From: Chloroflexota bacterium
GTDB lineage: Bacteria; Chloroflexota; Chloroflexia; QHBQ01
Reading direction: 5' to 3'
DNA: 20,000 nucleotides
Assembly (NCBI GenBank): GCA_043754535.1
Contig: JAYUUN010000048.1
Span: 44,484 to 64,483, forward strand
Position numbers and translations under genes: made by a program. Of this stretch, positions 341 through 9,593 are shown one piece after another; position 1 is the stretch's first letter; each line of letters starts with the position of its first letter. Below the pieces are notes generated by a model that worked only from the letters and a program-made list of their open reading frames with translations, did no database searches and was not told the origin of the DNA.

Positions 341-1483
341 ATGCGAAACACACGCACCCGTGGTCGCCCGCTGGGAGCCAGCCTGCTCGGAGTAGTGATG
401 ACCCTAGTCGTGGTCGGTTCGGTACTAGCAGCTAGCTCTGCCAACTTCGCCATCAACTGGTCGCAGACGGGGGCTGGCGGCGGCGAGGGTCGCAGTTCGG
501 CCAGCTACCGCCTGAGCAGCTTCACCGTCGGCCAGGCCGTCGCGGGTAACGCCAGCAGTGCCAACTTCCGGGCTGCAATGGGCTACCAGCAGGTCAACGC
601 CGCCAACGGCGCGGGAGCCACCCAGACCGCAGTAGCCGGGGCCACCCAGACCGCAGTAGCCGGAGCAACCCAGACCGCAGCAGTCGGGGCAACCGGCACC
701 GCAGTGGCAGCCACCCAGACCGCAGTAGCTGGGGCTAATCCTGCCACCCAGACGGCAGTAGCCGCCACCGCAACGGCTGCCTCTGGCACCGCAGTGGCAC
801 AGACAGCTACTTCGGTAGCCCAGACCGCCACCGCCGCCGTGCCTACCAACACCCCTGGTGGTAGCCCAACCGCCACCGCCACCCAGTGCAGTATCACATT
901 CACTGACGTGCCAACCACTAACATCTTCTACGGCGACATCACCTACCTGGCCTGTCGCGGTATCGTCAACGGCACCGGCGGCGGCAACTTCAGCCCCAAC
1001 GCCAACACCAGCCGCGGCCAGTTTGCCAAGATCGCTGCGCTCGGCTTCGGGATCGCCCCCTTCACCCCGGCTAGCGGCCAGAGCTTCAGCGATGTACCGC
1101 CCGGCTACATCTTCTACACCTTCATCGAAACCGCCTTCCACGCAACCGTGGTTAACGGCCTGACTACTACCCAGTGCAACAACCTGGGCGTGATGCCGCC
1201 TTGCTACGGCCCGAACGTCAACATCACGCGAGCGCAGGTCGCTGCTATCGTGCAGCGGGCGCGCAACTACACCGTCGTCACCCCAGCTGGTGGCGCGCAG
1301 ACCTTCACCGACGTGCCAACCAGTAACTTCGCCTTCAACGCGGTGGAGACGCTGGCTAGCCGCAATATCATCAACGGCGCAGCCTGCGCTGGCGGTGGTG
1401 GCCTCTGCTTCCGCCCGAACGACAACATCAAGCGGGGCGAGCTGTCGAAGGTCGTACGCCGCGCCATCGAATCGCTACCCTTA
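341..1483 (+). CDS. Secreted SLH-domain protein, about 380 aa: signal peptide, small beta domain, Ala/Thr repeat linker, three SLH motifs. Probable true end is at 1480-1484, not 1663
   Basis: AAGG before ATG; hydrophobic signal sequence (LLGVVMTLVVVGSVLA); SLH motifs FTDVP...LACRGIVNG...TSRGQFAK, FSDVP...ITRAQVA and FTDVP...IKRGELSK. Homology to the 2810-5551 paralogue stops at AIESLP (paralogue AIEQAP*). The 1484-1663 extension runs through a terminator and into the opposite gene. Confidence 0.9.
614..730 (+). repeat. Coding tandem repeat, 24-bp unit (GATQTAVA), about 5 degenerate copies
   Basis: ggagccacccagaccgcagtagcc / ggggccacccagaccgcagtagcc / ggagcaacccagaccgcagcagtc / ggggcaaccggcaccgcagtggca / gccacccagaccgcagtagct; decayed copies continue to about 840. 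Confidence 0.9.
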
Positions 1484-1496
1484 GCCACAGCAAACG

Positions 1497-1532
1497 AAGC
1501 CCCCTCCTCCGCAAGGGAGAGGGGGCTTTTGT
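1497..1532 (+). terminator. Rho-independent terminator between convergent SLH and DsbA genes
   Basis: Perfect 10-bp stem AAGCCCCCTC (1497-1506) / GAGGGGGCTT (1519-1528), followed by a T-rich tail TTGTTGTTG. Confidence 0.9.
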
Positions 1533-1549
1533 TGTTGCCGCTCAAGTCT

Positions 1550-2086
1550 TTAGCGCACCATCGCCTGCTCAATCGCCGCCGTCATCGCCGCAAAGTCGCG
1601 TTCGCCCGCATAACGTTGACCGTTGATAAAGAAGGTGGGGGTGCCATTCACCCCAGCGCGTAGCCCTGCTCGGAAGCCATCCTTGATCGGCTGGGTGTAG
1701 CGGCCATCAGCCAGGGCTGCATCAAACGCTGCCAGGTCGAGACCAAGCTCACCTGCATAGCGGTCGAGGTCAGCCCGCTCCAGGTGCTGCTGGTTCTCGT
1801 ACAGCTTGTGGAACAGCGGCCAGAACGCACCTTGCGCCGCAGCCGCCTCGCTTGCTTCAGCAGCTAGCTGGGCATGGGGGTGTGCGCTGGGGATCGGGAA
1901 GTGGCGGAAGACGAAGCGCAGGCGGTCGCCAAAGTGGGCGCGCACACGCTCAACAACCGGGTGCGCCTCACCGCAAAGTTGGCACTCAAGGTCGCCATAC
2001 TCCACCATCGTCACTGGCGCATCCTGCGGGCCGAGGCTGTGGTCGGCCTCCGTCACAGGCGGCAGCGGGCGGGCAGTAAGGCTCAT
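1550..2086 (-). CDS. DsbA-family thioredoxin-fold oxidoreductase without signal peptide
   Basis: GPQDAPVTMVEYGDLECQLC (CxxC), FRHFP, AAEASEAA..QG.FW and GVNGTPTFFING (cis-Pro loop). ATGA overlap with the upstream peroxiredoxin stop. Confidence 0.93.
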   Translation of the reverse strand: MSLTARPLPPVTEADHSLGPQDAPVTMVEYGDLECQLCGEAHPVVERVRAHFGDRLRFVFRHFPIPSAHPHAQLAAEASEAAAAQGAFWPLFHKLYENQQHLERADLDRYAGELGLDLAAFDAALADGRYTQPIKDGFRAGLRAGVNGTPTFFINGQRYAGERDFAAMTAAIEQAMVR

Positions 2087-2568
2087 TTGGAGTTCACGCC
2101 CCCCTGCTGCTCCAGGGTCTCGAACACCTTAGTCACCTCTGGCACCACCCCCCGGTTCGCGCCCTCATCGCGCATCAGCACCTTGCCATCCTTGTCCAGC
2201 ACGATGGTGACGCGGTTGGCTGCCCCGTCTGGGTTGGCGACCCCAAAGGCAGCGATGGTCTTGCCGCCCCAGTCGCTGAGGATGGGGAAGCTGAGGTGCA
2301 TTTGCTCGGCCCAAGCCTTGTGGCTGAAGATGCTGTCGGCACTGATGCCGATCACCTGCGCGTCATACTGCTCAAACTCTGGCAGCACTTCTTGGATGAT
2401 GTTAAGCTGGCTGGTGCAAGGACCACTCCAATCGAATGGGTAGAAGATGATTACTGCTGGGCGGCCCTTAAGGTCGCTGAGGCCCATCTCGCCGCCGGTG
2501 CTGCTCTTTAGCTTGAAGTCGGGGGCGTTATCACCCACCTTGAGCGTAGCCTTCTGCTGTTCGTCCAT
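2083..2568 (-). CDS. Peroxiredoxin (AhpC/TSA family, 1-Cys AhpE-like)
   Basis: LKVGDNAPDFKL, FYPFDWSGPC (PxxxS/TxxC), GISADS..SHKAWA, FPILSD and the conserved Arg (NRVTIVLDKDG). Only one Cys. AGGAG RBS upstream. Confidence 0.93.
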   Translation of the reverse strand: MDEQQKATLKVGDNAPDFKLKSSTGGEMGLSDLKGRPAVIIFYPFDWSGPCTSQLNIIQEVLPEFEQYDAQVIGISADSIFSHKAWAEQMHLSFPILSDWGGKTIAAFGVANPDGAANRVTIVLDKDGKVLMRDEGANRGVVPEVTKVFETLEQQGGVNSK

Positions 2569-2638
2569 TGTTGCGGGAACTCCTTTCGGGTATGGGTGGC
2601 GGCAACGCTGCCCGCCACCAGCACAGTTGACTGGCTGA

Positions 2639-2668
2639 ATTATAGCACATCAGGCCGCCCGCCCGCCA
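2639..2668 (-). promoter_or_regulatory. Sigma-70 promoter for the prx-dsbA operon
   Basis: Minus strand TTGGCG-18 nt-TATAAT with extended TGn (TGCTATAAT). Confidence 0.65.
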
Positions 2669-2686
2669 AACTGCCAGAGAAGATAG

Positions 2687-2715
2687 TTGCCGCCCCGCTT
2701 AGACGATGATATAAT
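2687..2715 (+). promoter_or_regulatory. Sigma-70 promoter for the M14-SLH gene
   Basis: TTGCCG (2687-2692), 17 nt, TATAAT (2710-2715), with TG at 2707-2708. Confidence 0.75.
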
Positions 2716-2809
2716 TGCGGCTACCACTAACGCCGTACCCCCAACAGTGACCGCCACATTTGTCAGCCGCTAACCAGCCCAGGTACCCATAAAAGGAGAA
2801 GTAAACAGT

Positions 2810-5551
2810 ATGACTCGTCGGTACAAGATCGCCTGGGCGTTGCTCGCCCTCGCTCTGGTTCTCAATGTCAGCCTTGCCCTGCTGCTAGCAGGGGGGCCAG
2901 GTTTCGCCAGTGGGCAGGGCTTCAACGGCCAGCCCCCCAACCCTGCTGTAGTCGTGGTCAAGGTACGCTTCAAGGATGACCGCGAACGCGACTTGCTGGC
3001 CGTGCGCTGGGGGGCTGACGAGGTTAGCACCAGGGGCGGCTATCTGACCATCTGGGCCAGCCAGCCACAGTACGAGCAGATGGTAGCGGCGGGGCTGAAC
3101 CTGACGGTGGACAAGCCGCTGACCGACCTGGCGAACCACCCCAAGAAGCTATTTGGCAAGGCCAGTGCTGGCGACAGCCCCTGCCCCGCCGACAACTACT
3201 GTGGGGGCTACCGCACAGTCGAGGAGATGCAGAGCTTCCTGGATCAAATGGCGGCCACCTACCCCAACCTGAGCGAGAAGGTGGACTACGGCAACTCCTG
3301 GTGCAAGGATCGCGCGGGTAGCTGCACCTTGCCCAGCCCCTACAGCGGCTACGACCTGCTGGCGATGCACATCACCAACCGCAATATTGCTGGCCCCAAA
3401 CCAGTCTTCTGGTATGAGGCGGGCATCCACCCCCGCGAGATAGCGGTCAGCGAGGTGGCGATGAACTACATCCAGTATCTACTTAGTAGCTACAACACCA
3501 ATGCGGATGCGCGCTGGCTGATAGACTACCACGACATCTGGGTAGTGCCAATGAGCAACCCCGACGGCCACCACATCGTTGAGGCGGCGGGCAGCGGCAA
3601 TGCTTACTATCAGCGCAAGAATGCCAACAACACGGCCAACAACCAGGGCCAGACCTGCACCACCTGGCCGCCGAGCGCAAGCAGTCAGTTTGGCGTGGAT
3701 ATGAACCGCAACTATCCCTTCCAGTGGGGTGCTGCGCCCGGTGGCAGCAGCAATGCCCCCTGCGACCAGACCTATCGCGGCCTCAGCGGTGGCTCGGAGC
3801 CAGAGGGTGCCTACGAACTGAACAAGATTCGCCAACTGGTTGCCGACCAGCGCGGTCCGGCCCTGACCGACGCGGCCCCGCTAACCACCACTGGCCTGCT
3901 GCAAAGTATGCACTCTAATGCCGCCCTCAACCTCTACCCCTGGGGTTGGTCGGTGCAGGGAACGGCTACCTACCGCGCCCCTAACTACCTGGATATTGAC
4001 AACATTGCCCAGCACATGAGCGCGCCCGCCGCTGGCGGCAACAACTATCAATCCTGCCAGTCGCCCGAACCCAACTGCCTCTACACCGTAGACGGTAGCA
4101 TCCGCGACTGGGCCTATGGCGAACTGGGCATCCCGGCGATCACCACCGAACTCGACGGGGCAGCCTTCTTCGTATCGCTGGCCGAGGCCAACCAACTCTG
4201 GCTCGACAACAAGGCGATGCTAATCAACCTGGCAAAGTCGGTACGTGCGCCCTATCTGCTGACGCACGGGCCAGACGCGAACAACGTGCCAAACGTAATC
4301 ACCGTCACCCAGGGCGTGAGTGCCAGCCTCAGCGCGAGCATCAACTTCCAGTGGGCGGGGCAGGGTAGCCATGTCAACCGCAACTTGCAAAATGTGGGGG
4401 CGGCCAGCTACTACATTGACACGCCGCCCTGGATCAGCAGCAGCGTGGCTATCAGCATGAACGCGACCGATGGTGCCTTTAACTCGCCGACCGAGGCAGT
4501 CAACGCGAGCATTGCCACTGGCAGCCTCAGCCCTGGCCGCCACATCGTCTTCGTGAGTGGGCGTGGGGCTACTGACTACGCTGGCTACCAGACGTGGGGG
4601 CCGATCTCTGCCGCCTTCCTCGACGTGACCAATGGTGGGGGCGGCCTGCCGACTGACACCCCCGCGCCACCAGCCCCCACCAGCACATCACTGCCAACCA
4701 TTACGCCAGCCCTGCCCACTGCCACCACCACAGCCCTGCCAAGTGCCACCCCAGCTTCGCCAACGACCACCCCAGGCCTGCCCACCGCCACTACCACCCC
4801 AGCAACCGCCACCAACACGCCAGCAACCGCTACTAGCACCCCTCCAACCACCGCCACTAGCACGCCAGCAACCGCTACTAGCACCCCTCCAACCACCACC
4901 ACTAGCACCCCAGCCCTGCCCACCGCTAGCAGCACAGTGGCCCAGCCAACGGCAACTACCACCCCCTGCACGGCCAGCTTCAACGACGTGCCGAGCGGTT
5001 ACATCTTCCACGACGACATCATCTTCCTCGCCTGTCGTGGGGTAATCAACGGCTTCCAGAACGGCAGCTTCCAGCCGAATGGCAACACAACGCGGGGGCA
5101 GTTCGCCAAGATCGCCACCCTCGGCTTCGGTATCGCTGCCTACACCCCGCAGGGCAACCCCACCTTCAGCGACGTGCCAGCCGCCAGCCCCTTCTACGGC
5201 TACGTGGAGAGTGCAGCCAACGCGAACGCAGTTAGTGGCCTGAGCAGCGGGCAGTGTAGCAGCCTCGGTCTGACCACCCCCTGCTACGGCCCCAACCTCA
5301 ACATCAGCCGCGTGCAGGTGGCAGTGATCGTCCAGCGCGTGCGGAACTACGCCGCCTACAACCCGACCAACCCCACCTTCAGCGACGTACCAGTGGGGTC
5401 GTTTGGCTATGCAGCCATCGAGTCGCTCAACCACGTGGGCGTAATCAGCGGGGCAGGCTGTGGCAATGGCCTCTGCTTCCGGCCCAATGACAATATCAGG
5501 CGTGGCGAGCTATCGAAGGTCGTCCACAAGGCTATCGAGCAGGCTCCGTAG
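2810..5551 (+). CDS. Secreted M14 zinc carboxypeptidase (carboxypeptidase T-like) with Pro/Thr linker and C-terminal SLH domains
   Basis: AGGAG RBS; signal peptide; Zn ligands GIHPRE and SMHS; NPDG, RKN, DMNRNY, SEPE; catalytic Glu in TTEL; three SLH motifs. Confidence 0.95.
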   Translation: MTRRYKIAWALLALALVLNVSLALLLAGGPGFASGQGFNGQPPNPAVVVVKVRFKDDRERDLLAVRWGADEVSTRGGYLTIWASQPQYEQMVAAGLNLTVDKPLTDLANHPKKLFGKASAGDSPCPADNYCGGYRTVEEMQSFLDQMAATYPNLSEKVDYGNSWCKDRAGSCTLPSPYSGYDLLAMHITNRNIAGPKPVFWYEAGIHPREIAVSEVAMNYIQYLLSSYNTNADARWLIDYHDIWVVPMSNPDGHHIVEAAGSGNAYYQRKNANNTANNQGQTCTTWPPSASSQFGVDMNRNYPFQWGAAPGGSSNAPCDQTYRGLSGGSEPEGAYELNKIRQLVADQRGPALTDAAPLTTTGLLQSMHSNAALNLYPWGWSVQGTATYRAPNYLDIDNIAQHMSAPAAGGNNYQSCQSPEPNCLYTVDGSIRDWAYGELGIPAITTELDGAAFFVSLAEANQLWLDNKAMLINLAKSVRAPYLLTHGPDANNVPNVITVTQGVSASLSASINFQWAGQGSHVNRNLQNVGAASYYIDTPPWISSSVAISMNATDGAFNSPTEAVNASIATGSLSPGRHIVFVSGRGATDYAGYQTWGPISAAFLDVTNGGGGLPTDTPAPPAPTSTSLPTITPALPTATTTALPSATPASPTTTPGLPTATTTPATATNTPATATSTPPTTATSTPATATSTPPTTTTSTPALPTASSTVAQPTATTTPCTASFNDVPSGYIFHDDIIFLACRGVINGFQNGSFQPNGNTTRGQFAKIATLGFGIAAYTPQGNPTFSDVPAASPFYGYVESAANANAVSGLSSGQCSSLGLTTPCYGPNLNISRVQVAVIVQRVRNYAAYNPTNPTFSDVPVGSFGYAAIESLNHVGVISGAGCGNGLCFRPNDNIRRGELSKVVHKAIEQAP
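4817..4906 (+). repeat. 45-bp coding tandem duplication in the Thr/Pro linker
   Basis: acgccagcaaccgctactagcacccctccaaccacc(g/a)ccactagc x2 with one mismatch (TPATATSTPPTT[A/T]TS). Confidence 0.9.
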
Positions 5552-5574
5552 CCCAGCAGAGTAGTAGCAACAGC

Positions 5575-5609
5575 AAGGAGGAGCGTGCAAAAGGGGTACG
5601 CTCCTCCTT
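5575..5609. terminator. Hairpin terminator between convergent M14-SLH and glycosyltransferase genes
   Basis: Perfect 12-bp stem AAGGAGGAGCGT (5575-5586) / ACGCTCCTCCTT (5598-5609). Confidence 0.85.
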
Positions 5610-5624
5610 CATTGTCGATGAGGG

Positions 5625-7433
5625 TAAGCGGGTGAGGTGGAACCAAGCGATGCCAATCAGCCCTCCCCCCTGCACCTGACCGCTGGCCGCCCAGTAGCCG
5701 CCCTCAGCGGCCTGTGCGGGGTGAGGAGCAAAGACCAGGGCTACCTGCCCGCTTGCGTCGGCCTGCACCGTGCCTAGCTGCGTCACTTGCTGGCTGGGGC
5801 TTGTCACCCACAGGCCGATGGTCGCGCCGGGTGGGTAGCCGCTACCGTGCAGCTTGACGCGCCCTGGTTGCCCACTCTGCTGCTCAACTACCGCGCCGAG
5901 GGTCGCCTGCGGGCCGCTCAGAGCAATATGGTAGCGACCAAAGCGTAGTTCGCTAGCCCCAGTTGGCGGGTTTGAGTTGCCCGCCGTCTCGTCCACCAGC
6001 CAGAGGCGGGGGTGTGCGCTGCCAGCCACGGCGTTGAAGGTGGCGTTGTCGGTGAGGAAGATGAAGTTGTCGGGCTTGTTGCTGATCACCTGAAAGACAT
6101 ACTGCGCGTTGTGGCGGTCACTACTGGCAGGCGGCAGGTTGACCACTACGCGGCTGTCGGGTGGTAGGCTACCAGCGGCGAAGCGGGCGCGCAGGTAGCC
6201 AGCAACGGCCTGGGTATCGCGGTCCGGGAAGCTCTCGCGGCGGGCAAGGGTACGGTCGAAGCTGTAGACGAATACGCTGGCGAACACTAGCCCGCTGACC
6301 ATCAATAGCACGGGCCGCAGCCAGCCGCCGTGAGCGCGTAGCCAACTGCTCCGTAGGGGCAAGTCTAGCAGGTAGGCAACAAAGGGTAGGAGCAGCAGCA
6401 GCAGAGAGACCAGGTAGCGGTCGCTGCCTGCCCCGATGTTGTTGTAACGGGCGGTAATCAGGATGAAGAAGACCGCTTCGCCGAGCAGCAGCGCAACGTA
6501 GGCGAACAACCGCCTGCTGCGCTCGATGCCAGCCGCCACCGCCACCCCGACCAGCAGCAGCCCGCTGATTGGCGGGGCGAGGGCGAGAAACAGAGCGGGA
6601 TAGAAGGTTAGCTTCGTCCACCAATCGCTTTGCGCGGCGGCGGGTGACCAATCGCTGTTGATTTGGCTGGTCGCCTTCGCAAAAGCCAGTGGGTCGCCCA
6701 GAGTCAGCGCACTCGCGCCCAACCAAAGGGCGATGAAGCTAAACGGCAGCAGGGCGACCAGCAGCAACTTCAGGGTTTGCAGGCGGGCTGCTGGCCCAGC
6801 AACCACACCGCTTGCCAGCCGCCGCTTCCTGTACTGCTCGGCGAAATAGAAGGCGGGCAGCGTCACCGCGAAAGCCAGGGCGTAGAACCAGGCTTCGTAG
6901 CGCACCATCGTTGCCAGGGCGATCAGCACCGCCGCGCCGAGAGCAGACCGCAGGCGATTGCTGCTGGCCCAGGCCACCACGAGCAGAGCCGCGCCACTAA
7001 GCAGCAGGTGCGATATGCTTTCCGACATCCCGCTGAGGCCGAACCAGACCTCCCAGGGGAAGACCGCCGCTAGCAACGCCGTCAGGTAGCCAACGCGCTC
7101 ACCGAACAGGGCGCGACCGAGCAGCAACAGATTGGCGAGGGTGCCGAAGCTACAGAGCAGGTTGACGAGGCGCGGGGCGAGGTAGAGGTTGTCCCAAAAG
7201 TGGATCACGCCGCCAACCAACCAGAAGTGCAGCGGCAACCACACCCCTACCTCAAAGCTGGGCTGCTGCTGCCACTGCCAGGCGTGGACGGTGCGGGTGA
7301 AGCCGTCGGCGTTGTAGTCTAGATAGCCGCGCTGGGCGGTGAGAACGAGTAGCAGAGAGCGCAACAAGACCGCTAGCGCGTATACCGCCAGCAGTCTCCG
7401 CCCCAGGCTCAACTTCGACCATGCTGCTCTCAC
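5625..7433 (-). CDS. GT-C fold membrane glycosyltransferase (ArnT/PMT-like) with a C-terminal Ig-like domain; probable true end is near 5625, not 5532
   Basis: Multiple TM helices, acidic first loop (YNADGFTR), WLPLHFW, MSES, RYEAW and DRYL motifs. The C-terminal beta domain (LHGSGYPPGATIGLWVTSP...ADASG...GYWAASG...IAWFHLTR) ends at an in-frame TTA (5627-5625). The remaining 31 or so codons cross the terminator and overlap the opposite gene. Confidence 0.8.
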
Positions 7434-7491: not shown

Positions 7492-9441
7492 CTAGCGGTA
7501 ACTGGCTGCTTGCAGGTTGAACAACTCGGCGTAGGTGCCGCCCAGGGTCAGCAGTTCGGCGTGAGTGCCATCCTCCTTGATGCGGCCATCCTCCAGCACG
7601 AGGATGCGGTCGGCCAGGCGCACAGTGCTGAAGCGGTGGCTGATGAACAAAGCCATCTTGCCAGTGGTCAAGGCCTTCATCTGGGCGAAGATTTCGTACT
7701 CCGCCCGCGCATCGAGGCTGGCGGTCGGCTCGTCGAGGATCAGGATTTCGGCATCACGCATGAAGGCGCGGGCAAGGGCGACCTTCTGCCACTCGCCGCC
7801 CGATAGCTGGTAGCCTTCGTCGAACCAGCGGCCCAGGGTCGTCTCATAACCGTTCGGCAGCTTTTCGATAGCTACGTTCGCGCCACTCTTGCCCGCAGCC
7901 AGGCCGACCATCTCTTGATTGTCGATCTCCGCCAGCTTGCCCACCCCGATGTTCTCGCGTGCGCTGAAGAAGTAGGTGGCATAGTCCTGGAAGATCACAC
8001 CGATGCTAGCCCGTAGGCTGTCCAGGTCATACTCACGCAGGTCGTGGCCGTCGATCAGGATTGCGCCCTCATCTGGGTCGTAGAGGCGCGAGAGCAGCTT
8101 GACCACCGTCGTCTTGCCCGCCCCATTCTGCCCAACCAGGGCGATAGTCTCGTCCAGCTTGATCGTGAAGCTAACATCACGCAAGGCAGGGGTCTCCTTG
8201 CCAGGGTAGGTGAAGCTGACGTGGCGGAACTCCACCCCCTGCTTGAGCGGCAAGGTCAGCTTGATTGCGTCGGGCGGCGACTGGATCGCCGGGGTGTAGT
8301 CGAGGAACTCGTAGAGGGTATTGAGGTAGAGGCTGTTCTCATACATCCCGCTCACCCCGTCAAGGATGCTCTGGAAGCTAGATTGCACCTGGCCCACCGC
8401 CTGGGTGTAGACGGTCAGTTGGCCGAGGTTGAACAGGCCGCGCACCGTCTGCAAGGCCACGTAGAGGAAGGTGCCGCTGCTAACGATGGTGCTGAGGCTG
8501 CCGAGGCCAAATCCCGCCAGGTAGCGGCGGCGCACCAGGGTGCGGTTCTCCTTGTAGAAGCGGTTGGCGATTTCGCCCCAGCGGTCAATAAAGTAGTTAC
8601 CCAGGCCAAACAGCTTGATTTCCTTGTTGTAGGTATCCTTCGTCACCAGGTCGAGCAGGTAGCTCATCCGCCTGCGTTCTGGCGACTGGCGGCGGGAGAG
8701 CATATAGCCCTGCCAACCGTAACGTGCGCTGGCGATAAAGCTGGGGATTGGCGAAAGCAGAGCCAGCACAGCCACCAGCCAACCGAGGGTGAGCAGGATG
8801 GCAATCAGGCTGACGAAGGTGATCAGCGAACGCACCAAGCCAAACATCTGCTGCACCATCGCCAGTGGGCGGAAGGTCGCTTGCTGCTGGGCCTGCTGCA
8901 AGCTGTCATAGAACTTGGGGTCTTCAAAGAAGCGCAGGTCAAGGCGGTTGGCGTGTTCCATCAACATCCGCTGGATACGCATGGCGGTTAGCTCTTGCAA
9001 CGCCTGCTGGTTGATGTTTAGCAGGGTCTGCATCAGGCTGCTAGCAACTAGCACAGCGAACTGGGCTACCGCCAGCCAGATCACAGCCTGCACGCGGGCA
9101 TCAGTCGCGCCAGTGCGGGCCGCATCAGCCACCTCGTTAATCAGTGCGCCGCTGATCAGGGCTGAGATCGCTGGCACCAAACCAGCGACCACCGCGAAGC
9201 TGCCAATGGCTAGGGTATAACCCTTGTGGCCCTGCCAGACGAGGCCGAAGGCACGGGGGATACCAGACAGGGTAACGCCCGCGTTCTTACGCAGGTCGGC
9301 TGCGCGTTCACGCAGATTCTTGGGTTTCTCATCTTCAGGGGGGGCAGGTGGCGCGCCGCTACCGCCGCCCTCGCCCTTGCTGACGAACTTGGGGCGGCCT
9401 TGCCGCTCCATCATTGGGTGCATGGGGGGTCTGTTCTGCAT
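7492..9441 (-). CDS. ABC exporter, fused permease and ATP-binding domains
   Basis: Walker A GQNGAGKT, Q-loop VIFQD, signature LSGGEWQK, Walker B ILILDEPT, H-loop ISHRFS; N-terminal TM domain. Start moved to ATG 9441 (MQNRPP), preceded by AAGGAAG and a TATACT -10 box. Confidence 0.95.
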   Translation of the reverse strand: MQNRPPMHPMMERQGRPKFVSKGEGGGSGAPPAPPEDEKPKNLRERAADLRKNAGVTLSGIPRAFGLVWQGHKGYTLAIGSFAVVAGLVPAISALISGALINEVADAARTGATDARVQAVIWLAVAQFAVLVASSLMQTLLNINQQALQELTAMRIQRMLMEHANRLDLRFFEDPKFYDSLQQAQQQATFRPLAMVQQMFGLVRSLITFVSLIAILLTLGWLVAVLALLSPIPSFIASARYGWQGYMLSRRQSPERRRMSYLLDLVTKDTYNKEIKLFGLGNYFIDRWGEIANRFYKENRTLVRRRYLAGFGLGSLSTIVSSGTFLYVALQTVRGLFNLGQLTVYTQAVGQVQSSFQSILDGVSGMYENSLYLNTLYEFLDYTPAIQSPPDAIKLTLPLKQGVEFRHVSFTYPGKETPALRDVSFTIKLDETIALVGQNGAGKTTVVKLLSRLYDPDEGAILIDGHDLREYDLDSLRASIGVIFQDYATYFFSARENIGVGKLAEIDNQEMVGLAAGKSGANVAIEKLPNGYETTLGRWFDEGYQLSGGEWQKVALARAFMRDAEILILDEPTASLDARAEYEIFAQMKALTTGKMALFISHRFSTVRLADRILVLEDGRIKEDGTHAELLTLGGTYAELFNLQAASYR

Positions 9442-9593
9442 CTTAGCTTGTTTCTTCCTTTTGTCTTTTATCCTTTCAAGTATAACCGAGCAAAGTGGCA
9501 GCAGGTGGCTGAGGCGTGTTTGAAGCTGGTTAGATTTGGCGGCAGGCAATAATAAGCTAGCAGAGAGGTCAAACGCTAACCACGCTACCACTC

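Follow-up and report, generated by a model that had tools for sequence, protein, structure and literature searches.

A change of a sense codon into a stop codon has so far been described only in mitochondria and plastids. UUA is a stop codon in the mitochondria of labyrinthuleans (Thraustochytrium), which use NCBI translation table 23. In Streptomyces, the rare UUA codon is read by the developmentally regulated tRNA-Leu(UAA) of bldA, and unassigned codons are known from Micrococcus luteus. The code changes known from bacteria are, to our knowledge, either changes from stop to sense or swaps between amino acids. The present study concerns TTA codons at the ends of two genes, for a surface protein and a glycosyltransferase, in a stretch of 20,000 nucleotides (hereafter the window; contig JAYUUN010000048.1, positions 44,484 to 64,483) from a Chloroflexota bacterium (assembly GCA_043754535.1). 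TTA was found to mark the end of the coding sequence, and the sequences compared here make it very probable that this Chloroflexia family uses TTA to signal the ends of genes, beside UAA, UAG and UGA. In about 200 of the 2,870 open reading frames (ORFs) of the genome (7%), the coding part stops at TTA, and both window genes are among them.

One report (PMC12574857) describes a replacement of the conserved 'Ser204' of mtRF2a by Ala, Gly or Cys for the Thraustochytrium-type mitochondrial UUA stop. The same report describes UUA and UCA as stops in the pedinophyte-derived plastids of dinoflagellates, and UUA and UUG as stops in the mitochondria of Marsupiomonadales; the plastid case is presented there as a sense-to-stop change outside mitochondria. 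AGA and AGG are placed in it at the ends of vertebrate mitochondrial genes. The literature searched contained no report of a UUA stop in a free-living bacterium, UUA stops being found there only in organelles.

The two TTA codons of the window

The first gene (341..1483, plus strand) encodes an SLH-domain surface protein with a Pfam SLH match. It consists of 380 codons with TTA as the last triplet, its bounds being those of the ORF when TTA is treated as a stop. Direct reading of the sequence places this TTA at 1481..1483, immediately after ...AIESLP. On the same strand, a G+C-rich hairpin (1496..1536) begins 13 nt past the TTA; it has a U-rich tail and looks like an intrinsic terminator, and a pattern scan placed its stem at 1500-1523. 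The folding energy of 1484-1540 was -34.4 kcal/mol (z -5.66), and none of 200 shuffled sequences was as stable. Under code 11, the listed ORF (341..1663) runs for 59 further codons past the TTA. This tail (1484..1663), which exists under code 11 only, passes through the hairpin and extends 114 nt into the convergent 178-aa ORF on the minus strand (1550..2086). Because of this overlap with the false tail, ORF 1550..2086 was lost from the crude gene calls. A paralogue of the surface protein (2810..5551, plus strand; an M14 carboxypeptidase with SLH, matching Pfam Peptidase_M14 and SLH) was used as the internal reference for where the SLH protein family ends. It terminates with ...AIEQAP-TAG in the C-terminal alignment (g135).

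The second gene (5625..7433, minus strand; 602 codons, again with TTA as the last triplet) encodes a membrane glycosyltransferase of the PMT_2 / GT-C type, in which the Pfam PMT_2 match covers residues 67-217. Its TTA was read directly at 5627-5625, after ...WFHLTR. A hairpin (5575..5609, minus strand) lies 15 nt past this TTA, between the two convergent genes. The minus-strand fold of 5560-5624 has a 12-bp stem and an energy of -24.5 kcal/mol (z -5.22), and again none of 200 shuffles was as stable. The code-11 read-through tail (5532..5624, minus strand; 30-31 codons) runs into the end of the convergent gene 2810..5551; the search for glycosyltransferase homologues showed no homology in the tail. 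When TTA is read as a stop, the ORFs of the window become 341..1483 and 5625..7433, and the overlaps with the convergent neighbours vanish.

A preliminary description, made from the letters of the window, had reported the two TTA codons, the TAG end of the paralogue, terminator stems 13 nt and 15 nt behind the TTAs, and ORFs that run past the hairpins into the convergent genes under code 11. The positions and the paralogue were verified in the sequence, and the folds and overlaps given above agree with the rest. It had also stated that TTA occurs in frame at these two sites and nowhere else in coding sequence. We counted in-frame TTA in the 15 longest ORFs of the window (6,365 codons, with 68 CTA and 101 TTG). 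The absence of TTA from the gene bodies was upheld; five further in-frame TTAs were, however, present. One is in the tail of the first gene (1550-1552). Three (9579, 9555 and 9552) are among the first 14 codons of ORF 7492..9591 when this is taken at its full length, upstream of its likely start. The last (19777-19775) is in a partial minus-strand ORF, which is probably a shadow of the plus-strand gene from 19793 onward.

TTA in the genome, in homologues and in the family

G000, the genome that contains the window, is a metagenome bin of 3,872,131 bases in 132 contigs with 61.4% G+C, and its set of 2,870 ORFs comprises 1,093,281 codons. The names of release-factor matches assign it to the class Chloroflexia. 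TTA was the rarest codon in this set (424 occurrences), followed by AGA (1,398); CTA and TTG occurred 12,215 and 16,181 times. In the central 60% of the ORFs (659,424 codons), TTA was found 36 times in frame, against 3,903 times in frame 2 and 2,245 times in frame 3, and genome-wide the in-frame TTA was 60- to 100-fold rarer than the TTA of the other two frames. This large gap indicates that the avoidance acts on the codon and not on the DNA word. Along the ORFs, the counts of in-frame TTA per decile were 159, 25, 6, 4, 13, 4, 3, 6, 25 and 179, so that the last decile holds 179 of the 424. Control codons gave flat profiles, or only a 5' excess produced by over-long starts.

The coding signal ends where TTA occurs. 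TTA was found in the second half of 200 ORFs, and in 122 of these at least 10 codons lie behind it. In the 122 ORFs, the codon score fell from +0.186 before TTA to -0.169 after it, against +0.227 and +0.199 in 499 matched controls; the G+C content of third codon positions fell from 0.761 to 0.603 (0.767 and 0.744 in the controls). The coding signal behind TTA is at the non-coding level, and the next standard stop follows TTA after a median of 16 codons, which is about the non-coding expectation. TTAs in the 5' half precede the onset of coding, the score being -0.18 upstream and +0.12 downstream. Terminator-like hairpins followed 12% of the 200 TTA ends and 14% of 298 standard stops, and were found at 3% of 217 sites inside genes. 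An overlap of stop and start occurred as TTATG at 21 of the 200 TTA ends, as TGATG in 81 of 866 cases and as TAATG in 27 of 680. The TTATG overlap is compatible with translational coupling, and is not clearly above chance.

Some other features of codon usage were also recorded. With the TTA ORFs excluded, the last decile still showed a 1.5- to 2.6-fold excess of AGA, AGG and CGA, which may reflect basic C-termini or the ribosome-binding sites of downstream genes. The excess of AGA (about 2.6-fold without the TTA ORFs) is modest and was judged ordinary. The commonest stop in the genome is TAG (1,216 of 2,870), and the leucine codon CTA is frequent (11.2 per 1,000); such a prevalence of TAG and CTA is unusual for a genome of 61% G+C.

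Comparison with homologues places TTA where they stop. Mid-ORF TTAs, for which distances of over 60 codons to the start and over 80 to the stop were required, numbered 38 in 33 ORFs. A Pfam family was found in 27 of the 33, and none of the 38 TTAs was inside a listed match; a count of TTA inside conserved Pfam domains had been proposed in the preliminary description. In 13 of these ORFs the TTA stands between unrelated Pfam families, and these 13 ORFs are therefore two genes read as one. For example, Thiamine_BP ends at residue 98, TTA is at 109 and Biotin_carb_N starts at 112; in another ORF, Pep_deformylase ends at 159, TTA is at 197 and Exo_endo_phos starts at 204. TTA follows shortly behind Thiolase_C (end 393, TTA 397), Iso_dh (end 377, TTA 385) and PmbA_TldD (end 769, TTA 774). 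The ORF C1:32855-37573 (L106; 1,573 aa) has TTA at residue 784 and a GH35 match from residue 801, 17 residues on; its sequence suggests that two genes split by a TTA stop are more likely here than a GT-C/GH35 fusion.

A second group consisted of 19 ORFs with tails of 20-52 codons. NCBIfam models matched 17 of them, no listed match crossed the TTA, and five full-length models ended 1 to 7 residues ahead of it. In threonine dehydrogenase, ORF residues 42-383 correspond to model positions 1-339 of 341 and TTA is at 385; in galactokinase, residues 10-383 correspond to positions 5-380 of 382 and TTA is at 386. Among the C-termini of G000, 63 resemble that of the window's SLH gene: 45 have a standard stop, 5 have TTA and 13 are internal copies. 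The ends ...SKVVRRAIExxP, with standard stops counted within 6 codons of the aligned end, are followed by TAG in 21 cases, TAA in 15, TGA in 9 and TTA in 5, the gene 341..1483 included. In the case of the glycosyltransferase, whose TTA is codon 603, no best stretch among the 150 listed homologues passes query residue 601. Residues 4-609 of the best homologue, P0241 (612 aa), align with query residues 4-601, and this homologue ends two residues past the TTA position of the window glycosyltransferase.

The family analysed here consists of G000, its congener G001 and three genomes of a sister genus (G002-G004); the samples of the relatives ranged from 43 to 200 kb. Orthologues have TAG or TAA at, or 1-2 codons from, the TTA of G000 in five clear cases (g492, g1350, g1409, g1413 and g570). 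In three clear cases (g1847, g2832 and g453), TTA is conserved in the sister genus with unrelated sequence behind it. Between G000 and G001 (200 kb sampled), gene ends were paired TTA/TTA in 6 cases and TTA/CTA in 1, with no switch between TTA and TAA. In the TTA/CTA pair, G001 has CTA (Leu), four codons and then TAG. The enrichment of TTA at the ends of homologues, which the preliminary description had proposed to look for, was thus seen in orthologues, SLH paralogues, NCBIfam models and glycosyltransferase homologues.

Two side observations concern proteins of G000. In C81:29240-32800 (L108), TTA is at residue 500 and is followed by an uninterrupted frame with B3_4 (574-728) and a complete tyrosyl-tRNA synthetase (822-1182), the two joined by an acidic, proline-rich linker; this B3_4 / tyrosyl-tRNA synthetase frame could be a real fusion. 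At least 63 ORFs of G000 carry the SLH-type C-terminal module ending ...SKVV(R/H)RAIExxP, and this surface-protein family is very large for a 3.9-Mb genome.

The rest of the family showed the same picture; a comparison with sister genomes had been proposed in the preliminary description. Central in-frame TTA occurred in 3 of 32,862 codons in G001, 2 of 26,530 in G003, 2 of 15,935 in G002 and 1 of 6,523 in G004. The outgroups G009 (21 of 15,175; 58% G+C) and G006 (7 of 12,678; 71% G+C) use TTA as ordinary leucine. The coding signal drops behind TTA in G001 and in G002-G004, and does not in G009. No TTA was found in a conserved aligned region in the samples of G001-G004. Since the same pattern is present in all four relatives, it is a trait common to the family, including the genus that keeps a tRNA for this codon (see below).

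An origin of the pattern in sequencing, assembly or binning was considered, the genome being a 132-contig metagenome bin. Logan contigs of four runs (X1, possibly the source, and X5, X6 and X10 from three other studies), placed on window positions 1300-5800, covered 1405-4751 or further and 5101-5800. They differed from the window at 21 places, with no indel, and none of the differences was at 1481-1483 or 5625-5627. Sequencing error is therefore excluded by the contigs of the other studies, which leave both TTAs unchanged and differ elsewhere. Furthermore, TTA ends are found on 82 of the 132 contigs, and on 42 of the 48 contigs that carry 20 genes or more; one strand has 95 of them and the other 105. 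Four further genomes of the family have the same pattern, and TTA and TAA are common out of frame. An artefact has, in our judgement, next to no probability. The fallback explanations of the preliminary description, namely two independent stop losses or sequence error, fail because about 200 genes on those 82 contigs behave alike. The sequencing runs listed for the window's DNA included none of RNA.

tRNA-Leu(UAA) and the release factors

ARAGORN found 46 tRNAs and a tmRNA in G000, with the leucine anticodons CAA, CAG, UAG and GAG. tRNA-Leu(UAA), which the preliminary description had proposed to look for, was not found in G000 by ARAGORN, by pattern searches or by relaxed ARAGORN, and pattern searches did not find it in the congener G001. 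A strict tRNA-Leu(UAA) pattern matched 19 of 36 relatives outside the family (16 of 32 without the unpublished G007, G012, G015 and G034) and none of the five genomes inside it. One 'tRNA-Leu(taa)' among the 288 calls of relaxed ARAGORN, on C60, was rejected for its bad structure and its location inside a 914-aa ORF. A 93-nt 'tRNA-Pyl(cta)' called by ARAGORN (C31:4032-4124), with cloverleaf mismatches and no proper T-loop, is probably false. A tRNA-Sec gene (anticodon tca) at C84:51665-51759 indicates that the organism probably uses selenocysteine.

As to the release factors, a search for the RF-1 domain found only two genes in G000, those of release factors 1 and 2 (RF1 and RF2), and no ArfB-like gene. 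RF1 has the usual P-x-T and G-R-I-H-T-S motifs, with no family-specific change at conserved columns. RF2 reads UAA and UGA, and CTT TGA C is the canonical +1 frameshift motif of its gene, prfB. This site was seen near the 5' end of prfB in G001 (L006) and G002 (L009). Since it is kept, RF2 still reads UGA, and the gene looks like an ordinary autoregulated prfB. Around the codon-reading loop, the family RF2 has H-R-M-V-R-I-S-P-Y-D-S-Q-H-R-R-Q-T-S-F; the corresponding residues are S-P-F and R-H-T-S-F in solved RF2 chains and in 98 of 120 homologues. All five family genomes have R-R-Q-T-S-F and S-P-Y; among 25 RF2 loci of other relatives, R-R-H-T-S-F was found in 25 and S-P-F in 23. Five residues before S-P-Y, the family has M in place of L, which is present in 113 of 113 other RF2 sequences.

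The best candidate for the reader of UUA would be RF2, by analogy with organellar UUA stops, for which altered RF2 is held responsible. RF2 is also suspected because UUA and UAA differ at the second base only, and it is preferred to RF1 because the family-specific changes adjoin the codon-reading loop of RF2 and none was seen in RF1. According to PMC6821328, the residue of RF2 that serves the second base is Ser206.

Two uses of the RF2 changes were rejected. H-to-Q and F-to-Y, considered as the cause, are not diagnostic: R-Q-T-S-F is normal in cyanobacterial-type RF2, and S-P-Y with Q is also found in the Bacillota loci L181 and L210. Five other clusters of Chloroflexi-type RF2 (P0027, P0032, P0045, P0102 and P0110) have S-P-F with R-Q-T-S-F, and the nearest species representatives examined (L139 and L140) have R-H-T-S-F. 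RF2 identities of 0.545 (f1-f2), 0.525 (f1-f3) and 0.610 (f2-f3) are uninformative without a rooted tree. Changes in the decoding centre of 16S rRNA were also considered; small-subunit rRNA was not found in G000, G001 or G002.

Several points weigh against the interpretation of TTA as a stop that is read by RF2. The bin is 88.9% complete (contamination 0.72%) and also lacks the tRNAs Ala-UGC, Thr-GGU and Pro-CGG and the 16S rRNA, and the gene calls were crude, being the longest ORFs scored with a codon model. The serine of S-P-F/Y is kept in the family RF2, and PMC12574857 reports that organellar UUA-stop RF2s lose a conserved serine ('Ser204' in the numbering of that report). The H-to-Q change is also present in 5 of 113 other Chloroflexi-type RF2 sequences, and L181, with S-P-Y and R-Q-T-S-F, uses TTA heavily (59 of 2,430 codons). 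A looser pattern finds a tRNA of 83-84 nt with anticodon UAA and A73 in G002, G003 and G004, beside cysS (L104/L223, L100 and L098/L222, respectively). All three copies have a C31-A39 mismatch. A pair in the anticodon stem is T-A in two species and C-G in one, and because of this compensatory change the tRNA is probably functional. The sister genus thus pairs avoidance of TTA with an intact-looking tRNA(UAA). The simplest reading for this genus would be that release competes with a weak tRNA.

In G000 and G001, the slot beside cysS is contiguous and 95% identical; it is free of tRNA and holds a 439-aa ORF (G000 C57:32167-33483, L219), which has no DNA match in G002-G004. The slot being contiguous and occupied, tRNA-Leu(UAA) was probably lost in the window's genus and is unlikely to be hidden in an assembly gap. 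This bears on the view that UUA is still leucine, read by a rare tRNA-Leu(UAA) that is missing from incomplete bins, and that the tails and fusions are translated. The tRNA of the sister genus, the incompleteness of G000 with its other missing tRNAs, and the single case in which G001 has CTA, four codons and TAG at a TTA of G000 would be in line with this view. The vanishing of the coding signal behind TTA and the terminator-like hairpins directly behind it, however, are contrary to translation of the tails. No listed homologue reaches into a tail, thirteen ORFs would fuse unrelated proteins, no TTA lies in a conserved domain, and the tRNA slot is taken by another gene in both genomes. We therefore regard a leucine meaning of UUA as highly improbable.

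Another possibility is that UUA is unassigned, so that the ribosome stalls and is slowly released by a near-cognate RF2 or rescued by tmRNA. On this view, genes ending in TTA would be accidents that the cell tolerates, in most cases through a change from TAA to TTA, and TTA would be no true stop. The failure to find tRNA-Leu(UAA) in G000 and G001, the presence of tmRNA on C73 and the occurrence of the RF2 motif changes in other lineages are consistent with this. On the other hand, TTA ends 7% of the genes, including those for peptide deformylase, isocitrate/isopropylmalate dehydrogenase, thiolase and galactokinase, and tmRNA tagging would send such proteins to degradation, as is generally known. 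The TTA ends are conserved across two genera, the sister genus has the same pattern together with the tRNA, and neither of the two RF-1-domain genes is ArfB-like. An unassigned UUA is accordingly unlikely, though less so than a leucine UUA. The preliminary description had suggested that UUA may have become a stop or may be unreadable, and each of its tests that could be run supported this.

Under the preferred reading, in which UUA is a stop, UUA would no longer stand for leucine inside the genes of the family and would act as an end signal of translation. The ribosome would release the finished protein at UUA, most likely through RF2. The gene of the competing tRNA-Leu(UAA) appears to be gone from its conserved slot in the window's genus; in the sister genus, which keeps the tRNA, UUA may be read ambiguously. 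A specific form of this reading is a four-stop code in which a modified RF2 reads UUA and the change has gone further in one genus than in the other: the sister genus, with a functional tRNA that competes with release, would be an ambiguous intermediate, and the window's genus would already have lost the tRNA. This form is put forward from the sequences as a tentative possibility, well short of the confidence that we place in TTA as a gene-end signal.

Comparison with known systems

If confirmed, these findings would mean that recruitment of a fourth stop codon is possible in a genome of about 3,000 or more genes. A direct comparison of the two genera, one of which keeps the competing tRNA, would inform the choice between the codon-capture and ambiguous-intermediate views of code change, and attempts to alter the specificity of release factors could naturally begin with the RF2 of the family. 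For about 7% of the family's genes, code 11 leads to a wrong annotation with false C-terminal tails. It also creates false fusions (at least 13 ORFs in G000) and suppresses convergent neighbours such as ORF 1550..2086 of the window; pipelines may lose such genes.

The resemblance to bacterial systems is partial. As with bldA of Streptomyces, UUA is extremely rare in a G+C-rich genome, and one gene for a tRNA(UAA) is retained in the sister genus. In Streptomyces, however, UUA occurs in regulatory genes and is translated as leucine, whereas here it stands at gene ends and the window's genus appears to be without the tRNA; no internal TTA was found in conserved sequence, and no tRNA-Leu(UAA) was found in that genus. 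As in Micrococcus luteus, a codon has been lost from coding sequence under compositional pressure, apparently together with its tRNA. Unlike in that organism, the codon is used at about 200 ORF ends, which are conserved between genera, and the genome has a G+C content of only 61%.

Among the organellar systems, AGA and AGG in vertebrate mitochondria are former sense codons that occur only at gene ends, have no cognate tRNA and are resolved by a protein of the RF family, as would hold for UUA here. They belong to an organelle, however, where they affect only a handful of genes and involve a specialised release-factor paralogue, whereas only RF1 and RF2 were found here. In the plastids of the dinoflagellates and the mitochondria of Marsupiomonadales, as in this family, the UUA stop was deduced from gene ends, and altered release factors correlate with it in the organelles. 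Those organelles have RNA editing and a heavily altered pRF2 or mtRF1a, whereas here RF1 is canonical and RF2 mildly altered. UCA and UUG, which are stops in those organelles, have flat decile profiles in G000 and are ordinary sense codons. In labyrinthulean mitochondria, as proposed here, UUA has changed from leucine to termination; in both cases it is absent within genes and is found at the stop positions of homologues, and an RF2-type factor is the suspected reader. The labyrinthulean change took place in a small organellar genome with a nucleus-encoded mtRF2a; the present one would have taken place in a free-living bacterium with a genome of at least 3.9 Mb, whose RF2 keeps the serine of S-P-F/Y.

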